Shown: piece after piece, positions 17,439 to 33,104 of the stretch
How the letters are laid out: each line of letters begins with the position of its first letter
Position numbering within the stretch: the first letter of the stretch is position 1
NCBI GenBank assembly: GCA_050250375.1
Contig: JBFWOS010000001.1
Location: 1,150,361 to 1,214,360, forward strand
DNA: 64,000 nucleotides
Reading direction: 5' to 3'
Source: Candidatus Omnitrophota bacterium
GTDB taxonomy: Bacteria; Omnitrophota; Gorgyraeia; Zapsychrales; Zapsychraceae
Position numbers and translations under genes: made by a program
The notes under the pieces: model-generated
What the model saw: the letters and a program-made list of their open reading frames with translations, nothing else
Databases searched by the model: none
What the model was told of the DNA's origin: nothing

Positions 17439-17516
17439 GCTTCGCGAAAAATCTGGTGGGCCGCCAAAACATCTGTTTTGGCGAGTCTCACCAGATTTTT
17501 TTCTTTGAAAAAAATC

Positions 17517-17593
17517 TGGTGGGCGATGGAGGAATCGAACCCCCGACCCTCTGAATGTAAGTCAGATGCTCTAACCAACTGAGCTAATCGCCC
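17517..17593 (-). tRNA. tRNA-Val (anticodon UAC), CCA encoded
   Basis: Minus-strand sequence GGGCGATTAGCTCAGTTGGTTAGAGCATCTGACTTACATTCAGAGGGTCGGGGGTTCGATTCCTCCATCGCCCACCA folds into a canonical cloverleaf by hand. The overlapping track ORF 17339..17578 is spurious. Confidence 0.9.
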
Positions 17594-17680
17594 GAAATTA
17601 CTGAAAACTCAAATTTCGCGCCACCTTTATACCAAATTTTAGGAATGCTGTAAAGAAGGATTTGTCCGAAGCAGACTGTT

Positions 17681-17995
17681 TTACCAGATCCGTTCACTGT
17701 CGGAACACCATAACTCAGAGACCTCATTGGTCGCCAAATCTATCGTGCCGTGAATCTCATCTGTATACTTGACGGCATACCGGGTGTTATTGAACCGGAA
17801 CATATGTTTATTTCCGGATGGGTAAACTCCTCCAAATACCTCTTTCAATGCATCCAGCGTAATCGGCTGGCTTAACTGAAGGCAGGCTGCATGCATTTCT
17901 TCAATCTCGTTCGGTCCGGAGAATTTCTCTGAAGCGAACTTAAAGCCAAACACAACCAATCCAATAACGACAATTAATATTAAAATTTTATCCAC
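17681..17995 (-). CDS. Small membrane-anchored hypothetical protein
   Basis: 104 aa. N-terminal TM helix ILILIVVIGLVVFGF. No recognisable domain. Confidence 0.35.
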   Translation of the reverse strand: MDKILILIVVIGLVVFGFKFASEKFSGPNEIEEMHAACLQLSQPITLDALKEVFGGVYPSGNKHMFRFNNTRYAVKYTDEIHGTIDLATNEVSELWCSDSERIW

Positions 17996-18127
17996 TCCGG
18001 ACCTCCTTGTTTAACACCGGCTAAATTTCAAATATCGATTTTGATATACAATTGTTCATTATTCTAGAAGATTCCCTATACGACTACAAGCAATAAGAAT
18101 ATTGTGTGTTTTTCAAGCAACTTCTCA

Positions 18128-18168
18128 AAAAAACAGAAAAGCCACCTTTTAGGTGGCCTTTCTGTTTT
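18128..18168 (-). terminator. Rho-independent (bidirectional) terminator downstream of the GH5 gene
   Basis: GC-rich stem GCCACCT/AGGTGGC with extended arms. Flanked by A/T runs on both sides (TTTTCTGTTTTTTT on the minus strand). Confidence 0.6.
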
Positions 18169-18204
18169 AATTAAATAAAAATCAACGGTTGTTTCTCAGC
18201 AGGA

Positions 18205-21200
18205 TTAATCAATATCCACAGCAATATAACCAACCGTTTCACTGACATGTTGACCGTCACTGCCTTCTTCTTCCTGCAGTTTAACATCAAAACTACCGGT
18301 GGATACGTTCTTCTGCCGGGTCACCACCGCCCCGCCTTCATTATACGTCTGGCATTGGGTGATCGTGGCCGGGGGCGTGCTGTATGAGTTAGTATACGAC
18401 ACATTCTGCCATTCATCGTCCACACTTTCGGTGCCGACTTCCGCTTGTAATCCGCTCGACAAGGCATGTGTTCCTTCTTCCAAAACAACATAGTCAATTT
18501 TTTCGATCATGTGTTTCTGGTTAAGATAATCCCATTCTTCGATCTGGAACTGGAAGGAGTCGCTGCCGATATTGCGCAGACGAATATGCGACGGCTGCCG
18601 TCCGTGGAAGGTGACAATCTGCATGAAGACCACCGGATTGGTATAACTATTCTTCAGCTGAATCGTGTGCCATTGGCTGCCCTTCTTCTGATACGCCGAT
18701 ATTTCGCCGGCTTCACCAACAACCGCTCCTGAAGAATTGGTGATCGTCCCGGGTTCAACCGCGAAATAACTGACCACTTCGGTAGTGTGATTCGTTTCCG
18801 GGTCTTCCGATCTTTCCTCTTCAATCTTGACCGTAAACCGGCTTCGATTGACTTGTTTGATTCGAAGCCCGGCCGTATCCATGCCGTTGAATGTTTCAAT
18901 TCCGGCAATCATGACCGGTTTACGTTTAAAGCAAAGATCGAAATCGACTTTATACCACTTCTTGGTCACCGCATCAGGTGTGCGCCCGGCCGTCGCCGGC
19001 TGGGTGACGACGCGTGACTGGATATAATAATCACTCAGCATGTTTACCAGCGTCACGTTCGGTTCGTGATAGAAACGGGTGTCGTACTTGGCGAACTTGG
19101 CTTCCAGTTCGGCGGCGCTGTCAGTCCCTACGTCCGGCCCTGTTTCTTCGTCATAATTCATATGGGTCTGCAGCCCCCACTGTTCTCTCGGTTTATGATG
19201 TTTGTACGACCAAACCGTCCAGCTCCAGTCCAGGTCATTGAATGTTTTGGCGTACAAGTCCCAGATTTCACGGTAATTGAACCCGTTAAACTCGCCGATC
19301 AGGACCGGCACATTATAGTCATCTTGTTTTGAAAACTCGACTTTTCCGCAAAATAGTTCATCGTTACCGATACTATCGCAGTCCGGGTCGTCCCCGCTGA
19401 CGAGGTAATCGTCCTGCAGATCGACGTCTAGGACACCGTCGATTTTGCCCTGCGCGTTAAACTTGAACCCGTAATAATGGAATTGGTAAACGACGTTGCT
19501 CCATGAATACGTATCCGGATCGGGCAATGTATCCCAATCTTTGTCGCTGGGGATCGCCTCCATGACGATGATGTGTTTGTTATCAATCGCACGGATAGCG
19601 TCATATAACTGGTCATATAAAGACCACAGTGCTTCCAAACCGTCTTCCCTATCCGGATAATAATAGGAATCGACGGCTCCGAACGGTTCGTTCAGCAGAT
19701 CGTAGCCCATCACTGTCGTGTTATTTTTATAGTATTCCGCCATCGCCTCCCAAAGTTCTTTGGTCCTCTGGCGGTAGGTGCTGTTGTTGGGATCAAATAA
19801 TTGGTGATAGTATCCCTGGCTAGGCGTTTCGGCGGAAATACGGCCGGAGTGAAACTCTTTACTTTGATGTCCGGGCGCGCCGTGCAAGTCGAGCAGCACA
19901 TAGATCCCGCGGTCTTCACACATCTGCACAATACGGTCGATTTGTGAAAAATCAAAACTACTGCCCGCAGCCCACTGGCCGTTGCTTTCATCGATTTCAC
20001 GGACCGCCCTGTAGTAAATCGGCAGCCGGACCAGATTGGCGCCGCTGCGCATAATAGTATCCAGGTCATATTCGGTGAGGTAAGAATCCTGATAGGCTTC
20101 CAGTAGTTCTTTGGCCTGCGTTGCGCCGAAACGGTCCGTTAATTCGGTACGGATACTCCAGTCGTCGGTGACAGTTGTCCCGTCCACCGTGAATCCGGTC
20201 ATCCACGCTTCGATCAATAGGTAATTTCCCAAATTGACCCCGCTAAGGATGATCGGATCGCCGTTGCCGTCCTGTTCCTTAATGATTTTATTCACCGCTT
20301 TAAGATAGCCGGCATTCGGTGTATACGAACGCTGCGGACTCCAGTCGCTGGTATCGGTAACCATACTGTTTTCTTCAACCAGCGCCCTGACCCGGTACCA
20401 TTTGCCGTTGGTCGCCGTCAACGTTGTGTGCGCGCCGTTGTGGATCTGTTCCCATGGCCCGTTTTTATTAGATGATTTCTCCACCTGATACTTGTCGGCC
20501 TGTGCCAAATTGGTCCAGGCCACTGTTCCTGAAGCCAAAGTGGATTTGTCGATCAGGACCGGTGACGGTTCGTACTTGACGACATCGCTCCAGTCAGATT
20601 TATAGGCGATCGGATTGTCATCTTCATCAACAGCCTCTTCCCAGCGCACACGCAGCCAGGCCGGAGAAACACGGTTCAATGAATAACTGGTGTTTGAACC
20701 ATGATATAGTTCTTCCCACGGTCCGAACGCCCCGCCCGTGCTTTGTTCGAGAGTATACAGCTGGGCGCCGCTGACCGCGTTCCATTCGACATCGCCGCCA
20801 GCCAGCGCGACCACATCTATCTGGGGCACAGATTTTGAAATACGGATGTCGTCGTAAAAATAGGAACCTCTCCAATATTGCTGAAACTGCAGCTTATTCA
20901 TATTATTCAGTTCAAAGTCTGATGGAAAACTGTCCAGCGGCACGCTGAATTTGGTCCATTGCCCGAACACGGCCGGTTTTTTCGGCCAGATCACATACGG
21001 ATTGCCGACCGGTTCGTTTGGATAGTTGTTATAGTCAAATGCCTGGAAACCCAGGTCGTTATCCATCCCGTTTTCCGGCAGGGCATACACCCAGAACGTG
21101 ATGCGGTCATACGGGGATTCCTCCGGAGCTCCGGGCCCGCTTGTTCCATCGAGGTCCACATACCATTCCGACTGGTAATAACCGCCAAAGGCGGCCAGAT

Positions 21201-22026
21201 TACAGGTACTTGAAAAATTGCAGTCTGTTGACTCTTCCCCGTCCGTGACCAGCTTCTTCTCCTGGGATTTAATGCCTGTCCCGCCAAAATAATCCAGGAC
21301 ATTCAGCTGCCAGGACCGCTCGCCTTCGTATACCATCAGGTCATCGACATATAAATCGACGGTCCCGAACCAGGCCCAGCCGTACTTTTCATGTTCTTCC
21401 CCGGTGAAATTTTCCCAAAAAATAATCGGCTCGAACGACTGATAGACCCTGTCGGCGGAAACAACTTGAATGTCGTCAATATAATAAGTTCCCGTATAAC
21501 GGTTAACAAATTCGATCTTATCCACGCTCGTCAGATCAAAATTATTCGGTAATTGCGAAAATAACACATCCAGTTCGGTCCATTCACCGTGTTTGGCCGC
21601 CTTGCTCGTAAAGACTTCGAACCCCGTTGAATGATAAATACCCTGGTCGAAGAATTTGACCCGTACCTCGTTGTCCGTCTCGTTGTCGGGTTCGGCCTTA
21701 ATCCAGAATCTCAGCCGGTCGTGCCGTCCCGGTTCAAAGTCCATATTCCACTCCTGCACCTGGGACGGTATCCCTGTCCCTCCCCAGCAGGAAGGGGGCT
21801 GCAACCCTTGTGCGCAGGAAGAACTCTCAATCTTCCAGGACTTATCTCCGGAGTAGGCCTCTTCATCTGTCAATGAAACGGCTGCCTCATTAAAACCCCA
21901 TCCCTGGTTATTGTTTGTGCCCGTACCGTCCTCAAAATCCTGGTAAATCAGACCTGCCGATGCACGTGATGAGAACATCCAGACACCACATATGGTTAAA
22001 AATAAAATTCGGCTACACCATTTCAT
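18205..22026 (-). CDS. Secreted multidomain glycoside hydrolase family 5 enzyme (cellulase/mannanase-type)
   Basis: 1273 aa. It has a signal peptide MKWCSRILFLTICGVWMFSSRASA, two N-terminal beta-sandwich domains of about 165 aa each, and two Fn3-like domains. The GH5 catalytic domain carries the acid/base motif YDLLNEP and the nucleophile motif VLIGEFNGF. Three short C-terminal repeats follow. A strong SD (GGAGG) precedes the ATG. Confidence 0.85.
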   Translation of the reverse strand: MKWCSRILFLTICGVWMFSSRASAGLIYQDFEDGTGTNNNQGWGFNEAAVSLTDEEAYSGDKSWKIESSSCAQGLQPPSCWGGTGIPSQVQEWNMDFEPGRHDRLRFWIKAEPDNETDNEVRVKFFDQGIYHSTGFEVFTSKAAKHGEWTELDVLFSQLPNNFDLTSVDKIEFVNRYTGTYYIDDIQVVSADRVYQSFEPIIFWENFTGEEHEKYGWAWFGTVDLYVDDLMVYEGERSWQLNVLDYFGGTGIKSQEKKLVTDGEESTDCNFSSTCNLAAFGGYYQSEWYVDLDGTSGPGAPEESPYDRITFWVYALPENGMDNDLGFQAFDYNNYPNEPVGNPYVIWPKKPAVFGQWTKFSVPLDSFPSDFELNNMNKLQFQQYWRGSYFYDDIRISKSVPQIDVVALAGGDVEWNAVSGAQLYTLEQSTGGAFGPWEELYHGSNTSYSLNRVSPAWLRVRWEEAVDEDDNPIAYKSDWSDVVKYEPSPVLIDKSTLASGTVAWTNLAQADKYQVEKSSNKNGPWEQIHNGAHTTLTATNGKWYRVRALVEENSMVTDTSDWSPQRSYTPNAGYLKAVNKIIKEQDGNGDPIILSGVNLGNYLLIEAWMTGFTVDGTTVTDDWSIRTELTDRFGATQAKELLEAYQDSYLTEYDLDTIMRSGANLVRLPIYYRAVREIDESNGQWAAGSSFDFSQIDRIVQMCEDRGIYVLLDLHGAPGHQSKEFHSGRISAETPSQGYYHQLFDPNNSTYRQRTKELWEAMAEYYKNNTTVMGYDLLNEPFGAVDSYYYPDREDGLEALWSLYDQLYDAIRAIDNKHIIVMEAIPSDKDWDTLPDPDTYSWSNVVYQFHYYGFKFNAQGKIDGVLDVDLQDDYLVSGDDPDCDSIGNDELFCGKVEFSKQDDYNVPVLIGEFNGFNYREIWDLYAKTFNDLDWSWTVWSYKHHKPREQWGLQTHMNYDEETGPDVGTDSAAELEAKFAKYDTRFYHEPNVTLVNMLSDYYIQSRVVTQPATAGRTPDAVTKKWYKVDFDLCFKRKPVMIAGIETFNGMDTAGLRIKQVNRSRFTVKIEEERSEDPETNHTTEVVSYFAVEPGTITNSSGAVVGEAGEISAYQKKGSQWHTIQLKNSYTNPVVFMQIVTFHGRQPSHIRLRNIGSDSFQFQIEEWDYLNQKHMIEKIDYVVLEEGTHALSSGLQAEVGTESVDDEWQNVSYTNSYSTPPATITQCQTYNEGGAVVTRQKNVSTGSFDVKLQEEEGSDGQHVSETVGYIAVDID

Positions 22027-22170
22027 GATATTCCTCCATTCTTTGGGATAAAATTCTATTAATCCGGTGTTATATTTTCCTGAATTCTCGGGAGATATTT
22101 TTAGTGGTCATAATATTAGACGTAATGGAATGACCAAATCTAACAATATTTTTAATAATTTATATCAATT

Positions 22171-24141
22171 TTACGGTCTTAATCGGTGGTAAAACGCGTC
22201 TGCTTTTTTATAGAAAGAACTGTTTTTAAAACCAGTCTCTGTCAGGTCTTGCAATAAAATTTCATATTTATTGGTGAGAATATTGCGCTCAAAGGAAGAA
22301 AGTTGTCCTTCCCTTTCAGGAGCATGAACCAATTGCACCATGCTTTGAAGGTGCGCCATGGCTTTGTCAAAATCACGCTCACCTTCAAGATAAAACCGGG
22401 CCATATCGATATGCATATTTGCCAGATAGGCAATTTCCTGTGGCGTGATGGATTTTTTCTTGTTAAGGGTTTCAATGGCTTTTTGATAATAATCCAATGC
22501 CAGATGATTTTCATTTTTGATCTTATAAATATCTCCGGCTCCTTTATACGCATAGGCTTGTTTGGATAAATCGGTCTGGCCAGCCGCCAGCTTTTCATAC
22601 AGTTTGATGGATTTAAGAAATTCATCGGCCGGTACAGAACCCCGCAGAGAAAAAACAGCGGCGTGTAGGTTTTTCTCCTTTAACTTGTCAGCCAGAAAGA
22701 ATTCTGCCTGCTCCACCTTATCTTTATTGCGCATCTTATTGGCGACCAAAAGAGCGCTTTGCGCCGCATCAATACTCTGCTCATAATCCGCGGACAAGGC
22801 ATACACATCCGATAAAAATATATTCGTCCGGTACTGGTCCTTTAACGAGCCGCCATTCCCCATCTGGCGGATATAGTCAAAAGTCTTGCCGAGACCTTCA
22901 GACACATATTTTTGGTGAATAACATCCCTTTGTTTCTCAATATTGACTACGCTCAAGGCGGATCTATTCTGGAACAATAAAGTTCCGCTGATCGCTATTA
23001 ATAAAAGACTGCACAACACAGGGGCCTTACGAACCAGCAGGTTTATCATATGCTTTCCGGAAAATAATCGGTCATCCCCCATAATTGGACGATTCGGTTC
23101 TCCGTAAAGGATATAACTGGCCCAGACCATATTGTCTTCTCCGAGCTTTTCTAAGGATGCTATCCGCGACTGCCTTAAGGCAGAACCGATCGTGCTGCCT
23201 TCACTTATATACTTATAAAACTCTTTGGCGAATAAGCTGCCATCTTCATCGGAAATTTTCCATAAGGTTCCCAAAAAAAACCTCACCCCGGCCAATAAGA
23301 AGGCATCAGCCAAACCAAAGATCTGCTCTTCTGAGCGGGACTGATAAACGTCTGCCGAATCATAAGCCGATTGACAAGAATTGGAAAAGATGAGCACGGG
23401 CATGAATTCATTCGGACCTAATGTATTCAATTTTTCGATTGTCCATACTCCGTCTTTCATGGCCCATCCGCTTTTTCCCCGGTCATCGAGATCATATTTG
23501 GTGTGTCCGGCAAAATGGATGACATCGTACTCTCTTAGATTTTTCTGAATAAAACTCAGTGTGATATCTTTAGTTTTGCTTGAAATCTGCATGACGGGGT
23601 CCTCCCCTCGAAACTGATCACGGATAGCCGCAGCCTCTTTACGCGCCGAAGGTAAATCCCCGCAAGGGTCAGACATGACCAGCATACGGACAGGCCTCTT
23701 GACCGTTCTGTATGTTAATGTATTTGATGGACGCCGGGTCTTGACACCTCGGCCAAAGTTAAACTTCATGCAAAAAAAATGTTCCCCATCAAACAGCAAT
23801 TCCCACGGGATAAAAACAAGGGCTTCATCCAGAATCACCAATAAATCAGTATATCCGGGTTGGGACAGAACTTTTTTAATCCTTGGAGACAATAAATTCC
23901 GGTATAATTCGCCTCCCGATTTTTTCAAATCAGCGCTGATCCCGACGGATTGATTCCCCAGTTCACAGGACTTGTTGATCAAACGGTTAATATCCGCTGA
24001 AAACCGATTGATTTCCTCAAACAAAAAAGGAATTTCTTCATAACCATGAACAGTCGCGCCCTGTTCATAAAGGCTGAGGCTAAGTTTGTCTTTATAAAGA
24101 TTGATCTGAAGATTTAAGGCTGGTTTATTGCGGTTTGTCAT
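22171..24141 (-). CDS. CHAT-domain (caspase-like) protease fused to a TM helix and C-terminal TPR repeats
   Basis: 656 aa. CHAT hallmarks include LLVILDEALVFIPWELL, a His-Cys dyad context VIHFAGHT ... VLIFSNSCQSA, a TM helix VLCSLLLIAISGTLLF, and about 250 aa of TPR-like helical repeats. Overlaps the upstream anti-sigma-like gene by 17 nt. Confidence 0.75.
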   Translation of the reverse strand: MTNRNKPALNLQINLYKDKLSLSLYEQGATVHGYEEIPFLFEEINRFSADINRLINKSCELGNQSVGISADLKKSGGELYRNLLSPRIKKVLSQPGYTDLLVILDEALVFIPWELLFDGEHFFCMKFNFGRGVKTRRPSNTLTYRTVKRPVRMLVMSDPCGDLPSARKEAAAIRDQFRGEDPVMQISSKTKDITLSFIQKNLREYDVIHFAGHTKYDLDDRGKSGWAMKDGVWTIEKLNTLGPNEFMPVLIFSNSCQSAYDSADVYQSRSEEQIFGLADAFLLAGVRFFLGTLWKISDEDGSLFAKEFYKYISEGSTIGSALRQSRIASLEKLGEDNMVWASYILYGEPNRPIMGDDRLFSGKHMINLLVRKAPVLCSLLLIAISGTLLFQNRSALSVVNIEKQRDVIHQKYVSEGLGKTFDYIRQMGNGGSLKDQYRTNIFLSDVYALSADYEQSIDAAQSALLVANKMRNKDKVEQAEFFLADKLKEKNLHAAVFSLRGSVPADEFLKSIKLYEKLAAGQTDLSKQAYAYKGAGDIYKIKNENHLALDYYQKAIETLNKKKSITPQEIAYLANMHIDMARFYLEGERDFDKAMAHLQSMVQLVHAPEREGQLSSFERNILTNKYEILLQDLTETGFKNSSFYKKADAFYHRLRP

Positions 24142-24820
24142 GGATTAACTGAAAACGGATGGCCCCGATGAGTTTATCCTGACGGTGGATCTCAACAGTA
24201 TACAGGCCGGGCTTGATTTCTTCAAATTTTGTTTTTCCATCAGAACTGGAACGTGATTCAAGTTCCTCCTCATTCTCCAGAAGAGTAAAACGAAAGTTTT
24301 TTACGTCCTTTTTCTTTAAAGGATCGGCCGCATGAATCACAACGGAATTCTGGTCCGCTTCCCCCCGGCTTATTTCAACCTTGATCAGCAGGTTATCAAA
24401 AGTTTCTTTGATGACAAGATTACTTCTCTTATCAACCTGGTTATCCCGTAATAAAGCTGACGGCTGTGACAGCGGTCCGAATATAATTTCCCCGGTTGTA
24501 TTGAGCAGGTTAAAAACATGCCGGCTGAATGCAGCTTTCACATGGAGTAAATTAGGCCCGTACTTTTCACTGACCAAGGCCTTGGCTCTTTCAGTTAGGT
24601 CCTGAGGTGTTTGGATAAAATCTATATTGTTTGGTTCTTCTCTCATCTTATTCTGCATCTGGATTATATCCCGGCAGCGTCCGCATCCTTGAACATGTTG
24701 GCGGATGATCTCTGATTCACGGGTTGAACATTCTCCCAGGACATACAATGCCATCCAATATGTCTCCGGACACCTGCCATCGCGGAATATATCATTATGT
24801 GTTAAGTTTTTATCTTCCAT
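24125..24820 (-). CDS. Putative zinc-finger anti-sigma factor (ZAS-like HxxxCxxC), cytoplasmic, with an unknown C-terminal domain
   Basis: 231 aa. HVQGCGRCRD motif about 50 aa from the N-terminus. No TM segment. Immediately follows the ECF sigma gene. Confidence 0.5.
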   Translation of the reverse strand: MEDKNLTHNDIFRDGRCPETYWMALYVLGECSTRESEIIRQHVQGCGRCRDIIQMQNKMREEPNNIDFIQTPQDLTERAKALVSEKYGPNLLHVKAAFSRHVFNLLNTTGEIIFGPLSQPSALLRDNQVDKRSNLVIKETFDNLLIKVEISRGEADQNSVVIHAADPLKKKDVKNFRFTLLENEEELESRSSSDGKTKFEEIKPGLYTVEIHRQDKLIGAIRFQLIHDKPQ

Positions 24821-24848
24821 ATGTATTAGACGGAATTCGCCATCGTTT

Positions 24849-25448
24849 CTAAAAATTTCTTTCTTTTTCTATAAACCGTCGCAATTTATCTTCCAGCCTA
24901 TTCTCACGCATTCCATAATTTTCGGCCGTTATGCCCAGCTCCCTGGCCGCGTCCCTGGATTTCGTCTTATCCAGCATCATACAAAAAACTTTCTTTTCTT
25001 TTTCATTCAACTTTTTAATGAACCGTTCAATGATTGTTTTCGCATCCAGATTCTTAATCAATTCCTTGGCAGACTCATCCGACAGTTCTTTTAAAAATTC
25101 ACCGGATCGATAATCTATACGAATATTATTGTCATTACTAAAATCATCGGGTTTAGGCCGGCGTAAAAAATCAATGACCATATTTTCAACAATTTTCGTG
25201 AGGTATGTCGACAACTTACATCGGTTGCGGGACTGAAAAGCCCGAAGAGCTTTATAATTATTTTTAAGCAGTTTAACAAAAACATCTTGATACAAATCGG
25301 CAATGGCCTCCGGGGCTATGGGGCGACCATTTTTATGGAAACAGCGGATAATCGTATGATAAATCAGATTAGAATATGTATTAACAAACTTATCCCAGGA
25401 ACGTTTGTCCCCTGAAAGTATTCCTCTGATTAATTCAAAGTCATCCAT
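24849..25448 (-). CDS. ECF-type RNA polymerase sigma factor (sigma-70 regions 2 and 4)
   Basis: 199 aa. Region 2 LIYHTIIRCF...DLYQDVFVKLL and a region-4 HTH SRDAARELGITAENYGMRENRLEDKLRRF. Confidence 0.8.
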   Translation of the reverse strand: MDDFELIRGILSGDKRSWDKFVNTYSNLIYHTIIRCFHKNGRPIAPEAIADLYQDVFVKLLKNNYKALRAFQSRNRCKLSTYLTKIVENMVIDFLRRPKPDDFSNDNNIRIDYRSGEFLKELSDESAKELIKNLDAKTIIERFIKKLNEKEKKVFCMMLDKTKSRDAARELGITAENYGMRENRLEDKLRRFIEKERNF

Positions 25449-25460
25449 TTACTTGGACTC

Positions 25461-26237
25461 CTAAGGTCCGATCAAACGGCTTCGTTTTGCCTGAAGATAA
25501 TCGAGGACCACCGCCCCTTTTTCTGATTGGACCGATACACATTGGCCCTGACGATCGGCCTGGTTGCAGGCCACCATCTGTGCTTTTTCCATACAAAGCA
25601 TATCCTGTTCCGAGGAAAAAGAAGATCTGACGGTGATGTCATCGTAATAATACGTTCCATCCCAGTAATTAAAAAATTCGATTTTGTCGACATGTTGAAG
25701 GTCAAAGTCTTTCGGGAGCTGGTCAAACATGATATCCAATTCTGACCATTGTTGAAAAGAGGCGGGAACGATCGTCCATATTTCGAATCCTTTTACGTTA
25801 TAATGCCTGCGGTCAAAAAATTTGACCATTACGGTATGGTCCCCCTGTTCCGAAGGGTCGGACCAAATCCAAAAGGTGAGCCGATCGTGACAGACGGGGG
25901 CAAAATTAACGTCGTAGGTGTTACTTTGAGCGGCAACACCCGTCCCCAGCGTCAGCGGTTTTCCTGCCGGAATCGTTAAAGCCCACGAATGCTGTCCACC
26001 GTGGACGGGATCATGTGTCCCGGAAAGTTGAACAACAGCCCCTCCAAAGGCCCATCCATATTCCGGTTGATCTTTATTCAAACTATAATATTTGGGAGGA
26101 GTCCCGTTCCCAGGTTCAAAATCCTGATACACGATCCGGGCTGAAGAAAAAGATACGGATGAAAAAAGAAATAAAACTGTCAGGCAGACTGACTTTAATA
26201 CTGACAAATATCCGGATACAACGAATTGACTGCGCAT
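25461..26237 (-). CDS. Secreted protein consisting of one copy of the beta-sandwich domain found twice in the GH5 protein
   Basis: 258 aa. Signal-like N-terminus. The region YQDFEPGNGT...HDRLTFWIW...VMVKFFD...VDKIEFFNYWDGTYYYDDITV aligns block by block with the GH5 N-terminal domains. It is the first gene of the sigma operon. Confidence 0.5.
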   Translation of the reverse strand: MRSQFVVSGYLSVLKSVCLTVLFLFSSVSFSSARIVYQDFEPGNGTPPKYYSLNKDQPEYGWAFGGAVVQLSGTHDPVHGGQHSWALTIPAGKPLTLGTGVAAQSNTYDVNFAPVCHDRLTFWIWSDPSEQGDHTVMVKFFDRRHYNVKGFEIWTIVPASFQQWSELDIMFDQLPKDFDLQHVDKIEFFNYWDGTYYYDDITVRSSFSSEQDMLCMEKAQMVACNQADRQGQCVSVQSEKGAVVLDYLQAKRSRLIGP

Positions 26238-26307
26238 AAGCTTTTCAGACCATCGGTTATCGATTTGAAAAAATATTCTATCATATTATAAACCATATTC
26301 AAATCAC

Positions 26308-26344
26308 CAAGAAAAAAGCCCTTCTATTTAAAGAGAAGGGCTTA
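26308..26344 (-). terminator. Rho-independent terminator
   Basis: 10-bp stem AAGCCCTTCT/AGAAGGGCTT followed on the minus strand by TTTTTTCTT. Lies downstream of the 26422..26733 gene. Confidence 0.7.
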
Positions 26345-26421: not shown

Positions 26422-26733
26422 TTACACAAAAAACAAACTGAAGGCCAGCAGCATAACGACAAAATACGTCACACCTCTGACCCAGGCCGGGGCTTTAGGC
26501 ACATTATCTGCTTTCCCGCCGGCATCAATCTCCATAGCCAGCCTAACCTGTCGGCCAAGGGTATAAAAGGCAAACGCGGCCAAAAGTAACATGCCGGGTT
26601 CCACACCGATTGAATTTTTAAGGCTGTACCCAACGGCGACAGCAATAAAAGTAAACGTATATATATAAGTATTTACTTTTATTTTGTTAAGGAAATCCTT
26701 AGCGCTATTCTCCATGAATAACCTCCCGTTCAT
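26422..26733 (-). CDS. Small integral membrane protein (3 TM), hypothetical
   Basis: 103 aa with three hydrophobic helices. Confidence 0.4.
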   Translation of the reverse strand: MNGRLFMENSAKDFLNKIKVNTYIYTFTFIAVAVGYSLKNSIGVEPGMLLLAAFAFYTLGRQVRLAMEIDAGGKADNVPKAPAWVRGVTYFVVMLLAFSLFFV

Positions 26734-27179
26734 TTTTCATCATTTCCATTAAGAGGAAATGGACGAGGCTCGCCCTTGATCTTAGAACCCGAAGCGGCCT
26801 TATTCGTGTTTACATGGATCTTTACATAAGATAAAAAGTATAATACTAGTCTACCCTATTTAATGAAAATTTCCAAATAATATGCATTTATTTTATTCTA
26901 TTGTATTTCAATAAGTTAAGTAAATTTTATAAGCAAAAACCGTTGTTCCTGGCCTATTTTGTCCATATATGGGTGGCATTGTCCGGGTGTAAAAGCATTT
27001 ATTCAAGATTGTGGCCTAAAAATATCGCTTGGTCGTAACTTTGTAAAGTTAAAAGATTCCCCATTAAATCTGTTGAATAATACATTTGCGATTTTAAAAA
27101 ATACTTTATAATAGAAACAGTCACGACAGCTTGCCTTTAAAAACACTTCATTAAATTTAAATAAAAACCATTTATCCAG

Positions 27180-29627
27180 ATGAAATTAAAATTACTTCTG
27201 ATCGGGTTGTTCGTATGTCTGGCATCGATTCCTTGTTTTTCCCAAGAAGCCGATTCGCCCAACGAATACTTTCCGAATGGTGATCTGAAAATACTTTGGG
27301 AGCCTAATGAAGGCACATCTCTTCTAACCCGCAAAGAATTTTATGAAAACGGCCGTTTAAAAAGTCAGGCCAACCTCATCAATAATAAACTCACCGGAAT
27401 CTATGTCGAATATTATGAAGACGGAAAACTTTATCTGGAAACGACCTACAAGGACGACGCTCTTAATGGGCCTTTTCGGGAATATTTTTCCAATGGCACG
27501 GTAAAATCCGAAGGTGAGTATATTGACGGTAAGCTGAACGGCATTCAATATATTTATTATAAAGACGGAAAGCTCAGCCAGGAAGCTAATTATGATAACG
27601 ACATCCTGCATGGGGTCGTAAAGATTTATTTCCCTAACGGCCAGATTCGTCAACTCTCCACCTACCGTTCCGGTAAGTTATCAGGACCCTTTAAAATTTA
27701 TGGTGAATTGGGCACCTTATTGTCTGATAGAAACTATGTCGATGATCTCCAGCAGGGTCCGTTTAATTCTTATCAGGACAGCGGGGTACTCTCGGAAAGC
27801 GGAACTTTCAAAGATGATAAGGTCGTGGTGCTGAAAAATTATACCCCCGATGGAATCCTGTTACGAGAAATAAACTTCCAAGATGGGCTTAAACATGGGG
27901 ATTATCGCGAATACTACAATTCGGGCGTTTTGAAAATATATAACACGTACGACAATGACATCTTGGTTTCCCAACAGGCCTATGATCAATACGGCCTTTC
28001 CATTAGCTATACAGACACTCAACCATCCGGTCAAATAAACTTCCTGTCTTCCTTCTCCAAAAAGGAAATTTTCTTTATTTTAGGCATACTCTTGTTGAGC
28101 ATTTTTGGAACAACCTTGGTTGTAAACGGTTATCACCGGATGGTTCGGCCCAAAACATTCATGGCCCAGGATGTTTATCCGGAAGTGAAACAAGAAAAAA
28201 CCCATGACAAAGATCATAACCCCAATGTGATTGACCCGAATGCCGACAAAATGTATCGAAGTCTGGTTGAAACGGTCCGCAGCGGGATATACCTGACCGA
28301 CGCTAAAGGTAAACTGATTTACGGCAACAATACTTTTTCCCAGTTGCTCGGCTTTAGAACAAAACCTGAAACGGCGGGTATGAACCTGGATGATACCTTT
28401 AGTGATTTTGAGCGAAACAAAAAGAAGTTTCTCGAACAACTGAATGAATCCAAAGCCGTGTATGACTATACCTTCAAATACAAAAAATCCGACGGAACCA
28501 TTGCAATATTATCTACTTCGGCCAATCATGTCTTTAACGACCGCGGTCAAATTATCGGTGTACAAGGCGTCATTATGGATATCACGGAGAAATTCCATCT
28601 GGAAGAAACCGTACGGACCGAAAAGAAAAAACTCGAACTTCTGCTCGACTTTTTTGAGACCATCGATACTATCCGGGAAATGGATGCTCTTACAAAATTT
28701 ATCATTAACGGGATCAGTGAAATTCTGGAATCCAACCGCTGTTCACTGATGATGGCAGAAAACGATTCCACCTCATTAAAAGTCTGTGAAGCCAAAGGTA
28801 TGGACAAAGACGTTATGGCTAGCACCAAAGTGGATTGGGGTGAACCCATCGCAGGAAAAGTTGCCAAAGAAGGCAAACCGATCCTGATCAAAAATATTGA
28901 ATATGATGATCATTATAAAGAGTTCAAAAAGCCATCCTACCGCGGCCGCTCCCTCATGGCGGCTCCGTTAATTTATAACGAAAATCTGGTCGGAGTAATC
29001 TGTGTAACCGACAAAAAGGATGAAATCCTTTACGGCGAACCATTCAATAATATCGATTTAAAAATCCTTATTACCATTGCCTCCAAGGTCGTGATCGCCC
29101 TGGAGAATGTCAAAATGTATAACGACCTGAACCTCCTTTCGCATACCGATCCGATCACGCAAATCTACAATTACCGGTTATTTTCCCAAAGCCTTGACCG
29201 GGAAATCTCGCGATTCAAGCGGGAAAAAAACGACCTGGCCATTTTTATGATGGATCTCGACAGTTTCAAATCATACAACGACACGTACGGCCACATTGAA
29301 GGAGATGAACTTCTAAAAAATCTTGGGAAAATTCTGAAAGAAAATCTGCGGGAAAGCGACATTGTCTGCCGTTACGCCGGGGACGAATTCTGTGTAGTCC
29401 TGCCGAACACCAATATCGAAGGCGCTCAGAAAGCGGCAGAGAAAGTAGTCAAAGGTGTCCGTGAATTTCCTCATTTTAAACGGGTGGTAACCATCAGCAT
29501 TGGAATTGCCCCTTACATCGATGGTTTGGATAAAAAAGAATTTATCAAACACGCCGATGCCGCTCTTTATGACGCCAAACATTCCGGAAAAAACACCGTT
29601 AAGGTTTACCAGCCTGAAGCTTCATAA
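27180..29627 (+). CDS. Sensor diguanylate cyclase: signal peptide, MORN/YwqK-type repeats, TM, PAS, GAF, GGDEF (variant AGDEF)
   Basis: 815 aa. Repeated YxxNGxLxxEGxYxxGKxxG units in residues 40-270 and a TM helix IFFILGILLLSIFGTTLVV. The PAS domain contains MYRSLVETVRSGIY. The GGDEF domain contains FMMDLDSFKSYNDTYGH. Its I-site is RESD and its A-site is RYAGDEF. Confidence 0.85.
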   Translation: MKLKLLLIGLFVCLASIPCFSQEADSPNEYFPNGDLKILWEPNEGTSLLTRKEFYENGRLKSQANLINNKLTGIYVEYYEDGKLYLETTYKDDALNGPFREYFSNGTVKSEGEYIDGKLNGIQYIYYKDGKLSQEANYDNDILHGVVKIYFPNGQIRQLSTYRSGKLSGPFKIYGELGTLLSDRNYVDDLQQGPFNSYQDSGVLSESGTFKDDKVVVLKNYTPDGILLREINFQDGLKHGDYREYYNSGVLKIYNTYDNDILVSQQAYDQYGLSISYTDTQPSGQINFLSSFSKKEIFFILGILLLSIFGTTLVVNGYHRMVRPKTFMAQDVYPEVKQEKTHDKDHNPNVIDPNADKMYRSLVETVRSGIYLTDAKGKLIYGNNTFSQLLGFRTKPETAGMNLDDTFSDFERNKKKFLEQLNESKAVYDYTFKYKKSDGTIAILSTSANHVFNDRGQIIGVQGVIMDITEKFHLEETVRTEKKKLELLLDFFETIDTIREMDALTKFIINGISEILESNRCSLMMAENDSTSLKVCEAKGMDKDVMASTKVDWGEPIAGKVAKEGKPILIKNIEYDDHYKEFKKPSYRGRSLMAAPLIYNENLVGVICVTDKKDEILYGEPFNNIDLKILITIASKVVIALENVKMYNDLNLLSHTDPITQIYNYRLFSQSLDREISRFKREKNDLAIFMMDLDSFKSYNDTYGHIEGDELLKNLGKILKENLRESDIVCRYAGDEFCVVLPNTNIEGAQKAAEKVVKGVREFPHFKRVVTISIGIAPYIDGLDKKEFIKHADAALYDAKHSGKNTVKVYQPEAS

Positions 29628-32797: not shown

Positions 32798-32874
32798 CGC
32801 TCCCGATAGGATTTGAACCTATAACCTACTATCATGGATAGCGATGCGCTTTAACCAGTTAAGTCTACGGGAGC
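32798..32874 (-). tRNA. tRNA-like gene with CAT anticodon context (Met or Ile2 candidate). Atypical anticodon/D arms, no encoded CCA.
   Basis: Perfect 7-bp acceptor stem GCTCCCG/CGGGAGC. Canonical T-arm ATAGG-TTCAAAT-CCTAT. A CAT triplet lies at the centre of CTATC-CAT-GATAG. No canonical 5-bp anticodon stem with a 7-nt loop or D-stem could be drawn by hand. An extended -10 (TGATAGAAT) sits upstream. Confidence 0.6.
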
Positions 32875-33027: not shown

Positions 33028-33104
33028 TGGCGGGGTTGACGAGACTTGAACTCGCGGCCTCCGCCGTGACAGGGCGGCGTTCTAACCAACTGAACTACAA
33101 CCCC
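33028..33104 (-). tRNA. tRNA-Asp (anticodon GUC), CCA encoded
   Basis: GGGGTTGTAGTTCAGTTGGTTAGAACGCCGCCCTGTCACGGCGGAGGCCGCGAGTTCAAGTCTCGTCAACCCCGCCA gives a canonical cloverleaf. The overlapping track ORF 32949..33131 is spurious. Confidence 0.9.

Follow-up and report, generated by a model that had tools for sequence, protein, structure and literature searches.

Sigma factors of the extracytoplasmic function (ECF) type rank among the largest bacterial signaling families, and many of their groups have no known activation mechanism. The closest described systems to the locus considered here join such a sigma factor to a caspase-like CHAT domain. In Craspase, from type III-E CRISPR systems, the soluble TPR-CHAT protease Csx29 is activated by target RNA and cleaves the inhibitor Csx30; in Myxococcus xanthus, DdvA, which acts with the ECF sigma factor DdvS, is a characterized anti-sigma factor in which a zinc-finger anti-sigma (ZAS) domain, a transmembrane (TM) helix, TPR and CHAT are fused in that order. 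Here, we analyzed a locus within a 64,000-nucleotide (nt) stretch of Candidatus Omnitrophota bacterium (GCA_050250375.1, contig JBFWOS010000001.1, positions 1,150,361-1,214,360; referred to below as the window) that encodes an ECF-type sigma factor, a soluble ZAS protein, a CHAT-TM-TPR protein, a secreted protein resembling a carbohydrate-binding module (CBM), and a giant GH5 glycoside hydrolase. We put at about 60% the probability that these genes form a transmembrane sensor-protease pathway for the ECF sigma factor, in which TPR would sense a signal, CHAT would cut ZAS, and the freed sigma factor would transcribe the GH5 and ZAS-CHAT genes.

The locus resembles Craspase in its proposed logic: an ECF-type sigma factor would be set free when a CHAT protease bearing a His/Cys dyad cuts the sigma inhibitor in the cytoplasm. 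It differs in that the window has no gRAMP/Cas7-11, CRISPR RNA, CRISPR array, or Csx31; the proposed activator is a periplasmic domain rather than a target RNA; the protease is a membrane-anchored CHAT-TM-TPR protein, whereas Csx29 is a soluble TPR-CHAT protein; the inhibitor is a 231-residue class I ZAS protein unrelated to Csx30; and a glycoside hydrolase takes the place of cas1 or defense genes as the output. An earlier note on this DNA had described the locus as the same three parts as Craspase without gRAMP or a CRISPR array, with the domain order of the protease reversed relative to Csx29 and the protein inserted in the membrane. That observation was confirmed, and its interpretation was partly supported. 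No tandem or CRISPR-like arrays were present in the 64-kb window, the only open reading frame (ORF) of gRAMP size there was the GH5 gene, and the protease has the reversed order CHAT(1-350)-TM(372-393)-TPR(398-654). Among the three parts, the CHAT dyad was recovered, but structure searches with Foldseek gave no Csx30-like inhibitor, and the sigma factor fell below the cutoff for the Craspase-associated sigma factor CASP-sigma (RpoE), scoring 36.5 bits against CAS_III-E_sigma (NF041236; cutoff, 100), which ranked sixth. This profile was one of many weak matches in 31 of the 48 sigma factors of the family; a special kinship to CASP-sigma was therefore rejected. On these comparisons, the resemblance to the Craspase-Csx30-CASP-sigma system is best regarded as functional analogy, not homology.

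DdvA shares with the window a class I zinc anti-sigma domain, one TM helix, TPR and CHAT domains, and an ECF sigma factor, and signal-induced CHAT proteolysis has been proposed for it. However, DdvA is a single polypeptide with a periplasmic TPR-CHAT portion and an incomplete active site, whereas in the window ZAS is separate and soluble, CHAT is N-terminal and probably cytoplasmic, and the dyad region shows full conservation. DdvA is proposed to cleave itself and then to be cut within the membrane by RseP; the window module would need no site-2 step. DdvA-like proteins were found by the authors of the DdvA study only in Myxococcota and one Comamonas, while the window family occurs in Omnitrophota, Thermodesulfobacteriota, Nitrospirota, and Planctomycetota. 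Proteolytic sigma control has also been proposed, in a review, for ECF54, whose conserved context includes CHAT-domain proteins, a subtilase, and a carboxypeptidase. ECF54 is actinobacterial, its sister group ECF58 is planctomycetal, and both are described as lacking an anti-sigma factor; compared by description, they differ from the window family, which has a dedicated ZAS protein and the CHAT-TM architecture. The main text of the ECF classification paper (PMC7826278) makes no mention of CHAT.

The type III-B SAVED-CHAT/PCaspase/PCc-sigma cascade and the CalpL-CalpT-CalpS system are similar in that a signal-activated cytoplasmic protease releases or processes an ECF-like sigma factor. Unlike the window protein, SAVED-CHAT and CalpL are soluble, are activated by cyclic oligoadenylates through SAVED domains, and are linked to CRISPR or CBASS; furthermore, SAVED-CHAT cuts a second caspase rather than an inhibitor, and CalpL is a Lon-type protease, not a CHAT protein. 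The RseA/DegS/RseP and RsiW pathways, which are canonical examples of regulated intramembrane proteolysis, likewise lead from an extracytoplasmic signal through anti-sigma proteolysis to ECF-type transcription; in these pathways and in RsgI, however, the anti-sigma factor spans the membrane and is cut by site-1 and then site-2 proteases, whereas here the membrane-spanning partner is the protease, and the proposal is that a caspase-fold enzyme cuts a soluble anti-sigma factor once, in the cytoplasm. Searches of the full-text literature, most subscription papers lying outside them, gave no account of a sigma/soluble-ZAS/CHAT-TM module, which is apparently undescribed.

Four of the genes form a tight series of minus-strand ORFs with intergenic spacings of +12, +28, and -17 nt, in the positions that the earlier note had given: the CBM-like protein (258 residues; 25461..26237), which is the first gene of the operon; the sigma factor (199 residues; 24849..25448); ZAS (24125..24820); and the CHAT-TM-TPR protein, a putative sensor-protease (656 residues; 22171..24141). 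The GH5 gene (1,273 residues; 18205..22026, minus strand), the putative output gene, encodes a secreted multidomain enzyme. The motifs VIHFAGHT, LIFSNSCQSA, HVQGCGRC, and GLYTVEIHRQDKLIGAIRFQLI, on which the earlier reading had drawn, were found in the sequence as quoted. The 17-nt overlap between the ZAS and CHAT genes has counterparts of 1 to 53 nt in many related loci.

By profile and predicted structure, the N-terminal half of the CHAT-TM-TPR protein is a bona fide CHAT domain, and its catalytic competence is predicted from a conserved dyad; the family assignment, the placement of the dyad, and the domain order with one TM helix, all claimed previously from the sequence alone, held. Residues 74-348 matched PF12770 across profile positions 2-289 of 289 (E 5.6e-39, 134.7 bits; cutoff, 24). 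The AlphaFold2 (AF2) model of the full-length protein, with a mean predicted local distance difference test (pLDDT) score of 89.1, comprised the CHAT domain at residues 1-350 (23092-24141, minus strand), a disordered linker at residues 358-365, a long helix at residues 362-394 that includes the TM segment, and an all-alpha repeat domain at residues 398-654 (22180-22950, minus strand). Pfam TPR matches to this C-terminal half were weak, and the all-alpha repeat was modeled with high confidence. Hydropathy analysis showed a single TM-like segment, at about residues 372-393 (22963-23028, minus strand), after the CHAT domain, and no signal peptide. When the N-terminal half was compared with the PDB by Foldseek, the top matches were Csx29 (8eey_B; E 3.1e-7), human separase (9hm7; E 3.9e-7), and Sb TPR-CHAT; the C-terminal half matched the TPR superhelices of LGN/Pins, KLC, and BtubC. 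Thus Csx29 is the best structural match of the window CHAT domain, and their dyads align. The predicted catalytic residues are His213 (23503-23505, in VIHFAGH) and Cys256 (23374-23376, in SNSCQSA), spanning 23374..23505 on the minus strand, and H209, H213, and C256 were invariant in an alignment of 62 CHAT homologues. The family profile aligned H213/C256 to H585/C627 of Sb TPR-CHAT (7x8a_D), with a marginal profile-to-PDB E value of 0.008; single-sequence PDB searches with the CHAT protein found no CHAT structures, but the family profile did find them. H585/C627 is the published Csx29 catalytic dyad, and the substitutions C627A/S abolish cleavage of Csx30 (PMC9729208).

Three independent, indirect lines lead us to infer that CHAT lies in the cytoplasm and TPR in the periplasm. 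First, no signal peptide precedes a folded domain of 360 residues. Second, among 76 family members, the 15 residues flanking the TM helix contain on average 3.9 Lys and Arg residues on the N-terminal side versus 2.2 on the C-terminal side, the N-terminal flank being the richer in 57 members and the C-terminal flank in 8, in keeping with the positive-inside rule. Third, in most of the longer relatives, CHAT is preceded on its N-terminal side by a class III nucleotide cyclase domain (Guanylate_cyc) and followed by TM, TPR, and LpoB/CsgG-like domains, and since a cyclase requires cytoplasmic nucleotides, the adjoining CHAT domain should be cytoplasmic as well. The CHAT-TM-TPR protein would span the inner membrane, placing its protease domain in the same compartment as soluble ZAS and its TPR domain in the periplasm.

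The identification of an ECF sigma factor was upheld by matches to TIGR02937 (sigma70-ECF; 72.2 bits, cutoff 42.9; residues 17-191) and Sigma70_r2 (32.1 bits, cutoff 24); Sigma70_r4_2 scored 17.2 bits, below its cutoff, and no specific curated subfamily was reached in the NCBIfam profile search. The proposal that the next gene encodes an HxxxCxxC anti-sigma factor without a TM segment and with a long C-terminal domain outside the ZAS fold was also sustained. ZAS matched zf-HC2 (PF13490) with 27.9 bits (cutoff, 22.2), its N terminus aligned weakly to RsiW and RslA (E 0.07-0.15), and its hydropathy showed no TM segment (maximum KD19, 0.63), as was the case for 139 of 143 ZAS relatives. The predicted zinc-binding HxxxCxxC motif (H42, C46, and C49; 24674..24697, minus strand) is conserved at 92-94% in the family; a Cys at the position of C17 (24770-24772, minus strand), the candidate fourth ligand, occurs in about half. 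ZAS therefore carries a CHCC-type site (C17/H42/C46/C49) with predicted zinc binding, and its N-terminal four-helix domain was modeled at a pLDDT above 90. In the AF2 model as a whole (pLDDT 85.9), helices at residues 20-27, 33-45, 47-61, and 73-82 compose a predicted N-terminal domain typical of class I anti-sigma factors, and strands at residues 91-114 and 134-227 compose a predicted C-terminal beta-sandwich. At rest, soluble ZAS would hold the sigma factor through the zinc-bound four-helix domain, as its family membership suggests.

An exhaustive HMMER search placed 489 clusters at 50% identity in the ZAS family at E<1e-3, of which 181 had E<1e-10; nearly all are 205-260 residues long and are matched end to end. 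Foldseek comparison of the beta-sandwich with the PDB, including the Csx30-containing entry 8eey, returned UNC119, FN3, and RhoGDI-type folds only, none at E<=1e-3. Because these are generic Ig-like sandwiches and no specific structural relative was recovered, ZAS is not Csx30-like. A public protein identical to ZAS (P0084) is annotated as 209 residues starting at Met23; such a start would remove the beginning of the gene (24755-24820) and with it Cys17, the likely fourth zinc ligand, and a family-conserved CPxE motif. In the public collection, an identical protein carries an annotation to a Candidatus Omnitrophota metagenome-assembled genome.

A substrate-like feature of ZAS is a flexible loop at residues 115-133 (GPLSQPSALLRDNQVDKRS; 24422..24478, minus strand), which is the sole internal disordered segment of the model, with a pLDDT below 50 at residues 121-124 and Arg125 (24446-24448) at the edge of this minimum. 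In an alignment of 120 ZAS sequences, Arg125 was the sole invariant residue; several residues of the beta-sandwich were at least 90% conserved. Taking Arg125 as P1, all 143 family members examined have Arg at this position and 117 have Ser, Gly, or Ala at P1', with Leu, Val, Phe, or Met at P2 and Pro at P6. Separase (C50), a relative of CHAT in the same clan, cuts after Arg, as noted in the DdvA literature, and Csx30, which is recognized through its C-terminal domain, is cut within a small flexible loop there (PMC10028731); the Arg125 loop is placed in the ZAS beta-sandwich in much the same way. From these patterns we infer that Arg125 lies in a context such as an Arg-specific caspase-fold protease would be expected to cut, with LLR125|D as the candidate site. 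A protease-substrate relationship is in keeping with both the invariance of Arg125 in the single disordered loop of ZAS and the cytoplasmic co-localization of ZAS and CHAT. Active CHAT would cut ZAS after Arg125 in this loop, and the ZAS fragments would then be destabilized or degraded, as proposed for Csx30.

The conservation of the neighborhood was assessed by a census from the CHAT side, in which a pattern scan was applied to one genome per species, giving 388 relatives, the best 80 loci were examined, and hidden Markov models were built from the families; a reverse census sampled four ZAS genes. A ZAS-family gene lay immediately upstream on the same strand in 50 of the 61 CHAT genes with room upstream, and the sigma gene was also present in 40 of the 54 with more room; conversely, three of the four sampled ZAS genes were followed by a CHAT N terminus. 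The expectation that the trio is conserved as a neighborhood in related genomes was thus borne out. The same gene order was seen with CHAT homologues that are 70% (L001 and L002), 33% (L003 and L004), and 32% (L005) identical to the window protein, as well as in a Desulfobacter genome (L006; 27%) and an unclassified bacterium (L008 and L009). Members were found in Omnitrophota, Thermodesulfobacteriota (including the cultured Desulfonema magnum 4be13, L070, at NZ_CP061800 596153-611754), Nitrospirota, Planctomycetota (Planctomycetales), and Binatia. The locus is therefore one member of a large, widespread family and not an oddity.

ECF-type promoter motifs occupy two fixed places in related loci: the 3' end of the sigma gene, just before ZAS, and the region just after the CHAT gene. 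In the window, the latter is represented by ATTGTTAGATTT-N12-CGTCTAATA (22114..22147, minus strand), between the CHAT stop codon and the GH5 start codon. The motif common to the regions upstream of GH5 in the window, L001, and L003 is TGTTAGATTT-N12-CGTCTAAT, and it is kept in L003 even though the proteins there are only 33-43% identical; the variant TGTAAGATTT-N13-TGTCTTAT precedes GH5 in L015 and L016. The short pattern GTTAGA-N14-17-CGTC has a single exact match in the 64 kb, at 22119-22144, where 0.26 would be expected by chance; the argument for this promoter rests therefore on its conservation and on its position weight matrix (PWM) score, which was the highest in the window (29.4, versus a maximum of 17.6 in 20 shuffles). 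A conserved ECF-type promoter before GH5 fits the view that this gene belongs to the regulon, and the freed sigma factor would lead RNA polymerase to GTTAGA-N16-CGTCTAAT promoters, resulting in transcription of the giant GH5 gene. At the other fixed place, the sigma-ZAS spacer, the window has a candidate sigma-dependent promoter, TTTAGAAAC-N12-CGTCTAATA (24824..24856, minus strand; PWM score, 13.5), which is the second-best PWM match of the window, shares its -10 element with the GH5 promoter, and lies where many related loci have theirs; cyclase-type loci carry a GTAAGAaa...CGTCTAT version at this junction. From this weaker copy, the sigma factor would probably also transcribe ZAS-CHAT, providing negative feedback and a reset.

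Other lineages have different genes after the conserved promoter. In other Omnitrophota and in Planctomycetales, these are a 440-residue protein with a B-box zinc finger and a UvrD/SLFN-like helicase (L011 3864-5186; L013, about 4479) or a BNR/sortilin-like repeat protein of about 520 residues (L050 10271-11830, L079, L080, and L081). L011 and L013 have a third copy of the motif further downstream.

The output enzyme matched Cellulase (PF00150) at residues 646-944 (E 1.5e-30, 107 bits; cutoff, 23.5), and its C terminus carries H-type-lectin-like repeats (H_lectin, 24.4 bits). At its N terminus are two tandem CBM-like modules (about residues 25-412; 20791-21954), and the 258-residue protein encoded at the start of the operon is 38-44% identical to approximately residues 1-191 of GH5 and more weakly similar to residues 188-412. 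The 258-residue protein has a signal-peptide-like hydrophobic N terminus (residues 4-36) and no Pfam, NCBIfam, or PDB sequence match, so that its sugar-binding-like label depends solely on the identity to the tandem modules of GH5; together, they may represent an undescribed carbohydrate-binding module family. A CBM-like homologue lies upstream of sigma in every locus with GH5 as output (L001, L002, L003/L004/L012, L015, and L016), and orthologous giant GH5 genes come after the CHAT gene in L001, L003/L004/L012, L015, and L016. The complete five-gene unit (CBM-like, sigma, ZAS, CHAT-TM-TPR, and GH5) is found in four divergent lineages (the window with L001, L003 with L012, L015, and L016), in each of which the GH5 enzyme has modules paralogous to the stand-alone CBM-like protein of the same locus.

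The earlier note had taken both the GH5 and the sugar-binding-like genes as the likely regulon, and the evidence fits only the former. Upstream of the CBM-like gene, a terminator-like hairpin (26312-26343) is followed by a sigma70-like TTGAAT-N16-TAGAAT element (26275-26302), together spanning 26275..26343 on the minus strand; both are conserved in L001, and the sigma70-like element probably drives housekeeping expression of the CBM-sigma part of the operon. A PWM scan found no ECF-type motif upstream of the CBM-like gene, and its membership of the regulon is accordingly unsupported. Given the position of this gene upstream of sigma, its sigma70-like promoter, and the missing ECF motif, its product is more likely an extracytoplasmic partner or co-sensor than a regulon member. 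An extracytoplasmic cue, in this lineage probably a glycan or glycan fragment and possibly presented by the secreted CBM-like protein, would activate CHAT. A functional parallel to the CBM-like/GH5 pairing is offered by the sigmaI-RsgI systems of Clostridium thermocellum, in which CBM-bearing polysaccharide sensors control glycoside hydrolase genes.

Several points weigh against the proposed sensor-protease pathway. Eleven of the 61 related CHAT genes have no adjacent ZAS gene, almost all of them being of the cyclase type, and one ZAS locus (L093) has the sigma gene but a convergent gene in the place of CHAT; the ZAS-CHAT pairing is strong but not obligatory. The PWM score of the sigma-ZAS spacer promoter (13.5) is within the shuffle range and is not significant alone, and only 3 nt separate the end of its -10 element from the ZAS ATG, so that a leaderless message or another start would be needed; the spacing suggests either no leader or the existence of two isoforms. 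What the signal is and what the CBM-like protein does are matters of conjecture, thiol oxidation is another way in which ZAS proteins can be released, with no need of proteolysis, and the invariant Arg125 could serve binding rather than cleavage.

If Arg125 served binding, the ZAS sandwich and its Arg loop might dock uncut on CHAT, as securin does on separase, or act as a simple membrane tether, with the periplasmic signal releasing or rebinding the sigma-ZAS complex by conformational change and the protease serving other ends or turnover. The synteny and co-localization evidence is the same for such a partner switch as for cleavage; separase is itself kept inactive by a pseudosubstrate inhibitor, and an invariant loop Arg suits a pseudosubstrate equally well. 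However, the strict retention of the His/Cys dyad in all 62 homologues speaks for genuine catalysis, scissile sites typically show the kind of small P1' and hydrophobic P2 residues seen here, and all characterized CHAT/sigma systems work by cleavage. We regard docking without cleavage as unlikely, although it survives better than the other alternatives.

Release by oxidation raises a second alternative, in which ZAS would be an RsrA-type thiol sensor whose zinc site, once oxidized, frees the sigma factor, and CHAT would be a co-regulated member of the regulon or would have other substrates, for example envelope proteins or CHAT itself. The solubility of ZAS, its HxxxCxxC motif with an upstream Cys, and a weak TIGR03988 (RsrA) match that falls far short of the cutoff (E 0.0012) are compatible with this possibility, as are the promoter before ZAS-CHAT, which makes both genes regulon members, and the dual redox and proteolytic input suggested for DdvA. 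A redox switch, however, leaves the 150-residue beta-sandwich, the invariant Arg loop, and the near-obligatory overlap with CHAT unexplained; about half of the family lacks the upstream Cys, and nothing evident connects a glycoside hydrolase output with thiol stress. It seems to us a slightly poorer candidate than uncut docking.

A third alternative is an anti-phage or abortive-infection module, in which the CHAT protease and the sigma factor would respond to infection with a defense program, like Craspase, the type III-B SAVED-CHAT cascade, or DdvA-DdvS. All experimentally studied systems that pair CHAT with an ECF sigma factor are defense linked, the output behind the promoter in some lineages is the B-box and UvrD/SLFN-like helicase protein, and the regulatory cassette diverges much faster than its flanks. 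Against this, none of the five proteins had a significant PADLOC match, the window and the loci examined contain no CRISPR, CBASS, or other defense gene, a secreted GH5 enzyme with a paralogous CBM-like partner forms the output here and in four lineages, and the sensor domain faces the periplasm; we consider a defense role improbable. Least credible of all is the inverse, DdvA-like topology, with CHAT outside the cytoplasm as a site-1-type protease and TPR inside, which has a precedent in the periplasmic TPR-CHAT part of DdvA but conflicts with the missing signal peptide, the charge bias (57 versus 8), the N-terminal cyclase fusions of relatives, and the lack of any membrane-spanning or periplasmic part of ZAS to cut.

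Related loci in several phyla combine the same sigma/ZAS/CHAT-TM core with different periplasmic domains, with or without a cytoplasmic cyclase domain, and with different output genes. A broader claim, to which we give somewhat less than an even chance, is that the trio constitutes a large, previously unrecognized signaling class, in which a caspase-like receptor makes a single cytoplasmic cut after an invariant Arg in a soluble anti-sigma factor, without a site-1/site-2 cascade, and is combined with interchangeable sensors (TPR, LpoB/CsgG-like, FlgT-like, or cyclase) and outputs (GH5, BNR protein, or helicase), and that it is perhaps the housekeeping ancestor of the protease-sigma arm of Craspase. 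Such an ancestry may be envisioned because members of the family abound in the host phyla of type III-E systems (Desulfonema and other Thermodesulfobacteriota, Planctomycetota, and Omnitrophota) and because Csx29 is the closest solved relative of its protease. Most thermodesulfobacterial relatives (P0009, P0021, and many of L017-L089) are about 1,050-1,100 residues long and have the architecture Guanylate_cyc-CHAT-TM-TPR-LpoB/CsgG-like; by this arrangement, one cyclase-type receptor may couple a periplasmic signal to cyclic-nucleotide synthesis as well as to proteolysis.

If the proposed pathway is correct, it would represent a distinct mechanism, in which the cytoplasmic caspase-like domain of a membrane receptor cleaves a soluble anti-sigma factor, in hundreds of species from poorly studied phyla. 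The control of sigma factors by CHAT would then not be confined to CRISPR and CBASS defense but would follow a general logic, applied here to polysaccharide degradation, and the family would be a plausible evolutionary source for the protease arm of Craspase. Specific predictions follow for the dyad (H213/C256), the cleavage site (LLR125|D), and the promoter (GTTAGA-N16-CGTCTAAT). Moreover, the protease, cleavable inhibitor, sigma factor, and promoter would supply compact orthogonal parts of a kind already used from Craspase in synthetic biology. Since the cultured Desulfonema magnum 4be13 carries a family member, experiments need not depend on uncultured Omnitrophota.

Comparison of the window with the syntenic locus L001 showed that the CBM-like/sigma/ZAS/CHAT cassette (22300-26200) is 60-79% identical at the DNA level, with protein identities of 72% for the CBM-like protein, 52% for sigma, 68% for ZAS, and 70% for CHAT. 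By contrast, GH5 and the small flanking genes (17500-22000 and 26500-26800) are 84-95% identical in DNA and 93-99% identical in protein. This difference indicates that the sensing cassette evolves, or is exchanged, much faster than the output gene.

Among 93 related loci, no gRAMP/Cas7-11 gene or CRISPR array was found, the large ORFs encoding GH5 or beta-helix proteins; gRAMP-sized ORFs in L015 and L016 were ruled out as gRAMP, since they encode GH5 enzymes. Directly after the CHAT stop codon, an 86-nt unit that shows dyad symmetry internally is repeated about 9.8 times in a Desulfococcaceae locus (L030 4152-4991), and a 61-nt unit about 4.8 times in Desulfonema magnum (L070 9478-9761). Both arrays were ruled out as CRISPR, being plain tandem repeats without unique spacers.

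The neighbors of the operon are sugar-nucleotide and polysaccharide biosynthesis genes and a GGDEF protein, a setting that we judged to be ordinary. The GGDEF protein (815 residues; 27180-29627, plus strand), encoded on the opposite strand beside the operon, has N-terminal MORN_2 repeats after a signal-like sequence, followed by TM, PAS, GAF, and GGDEF segments, and looks like an envelope-sensing diguanylate cyclase. The module is flanked by genes for two small membrane-anchored proteins without a family match (17681-17995, 104 residues; 26422-26733, 103 residues), which are 94-99% identical in L001; L003 has a 73-residue ORF at the equivalent upstream position. Three tRNA genes (Rfam RF00005) lie on the minus strand of the window, at 17520-17593, 32798-32874, and 33031-33104, one of which is directly downstream of the small gene that comes after GH5.

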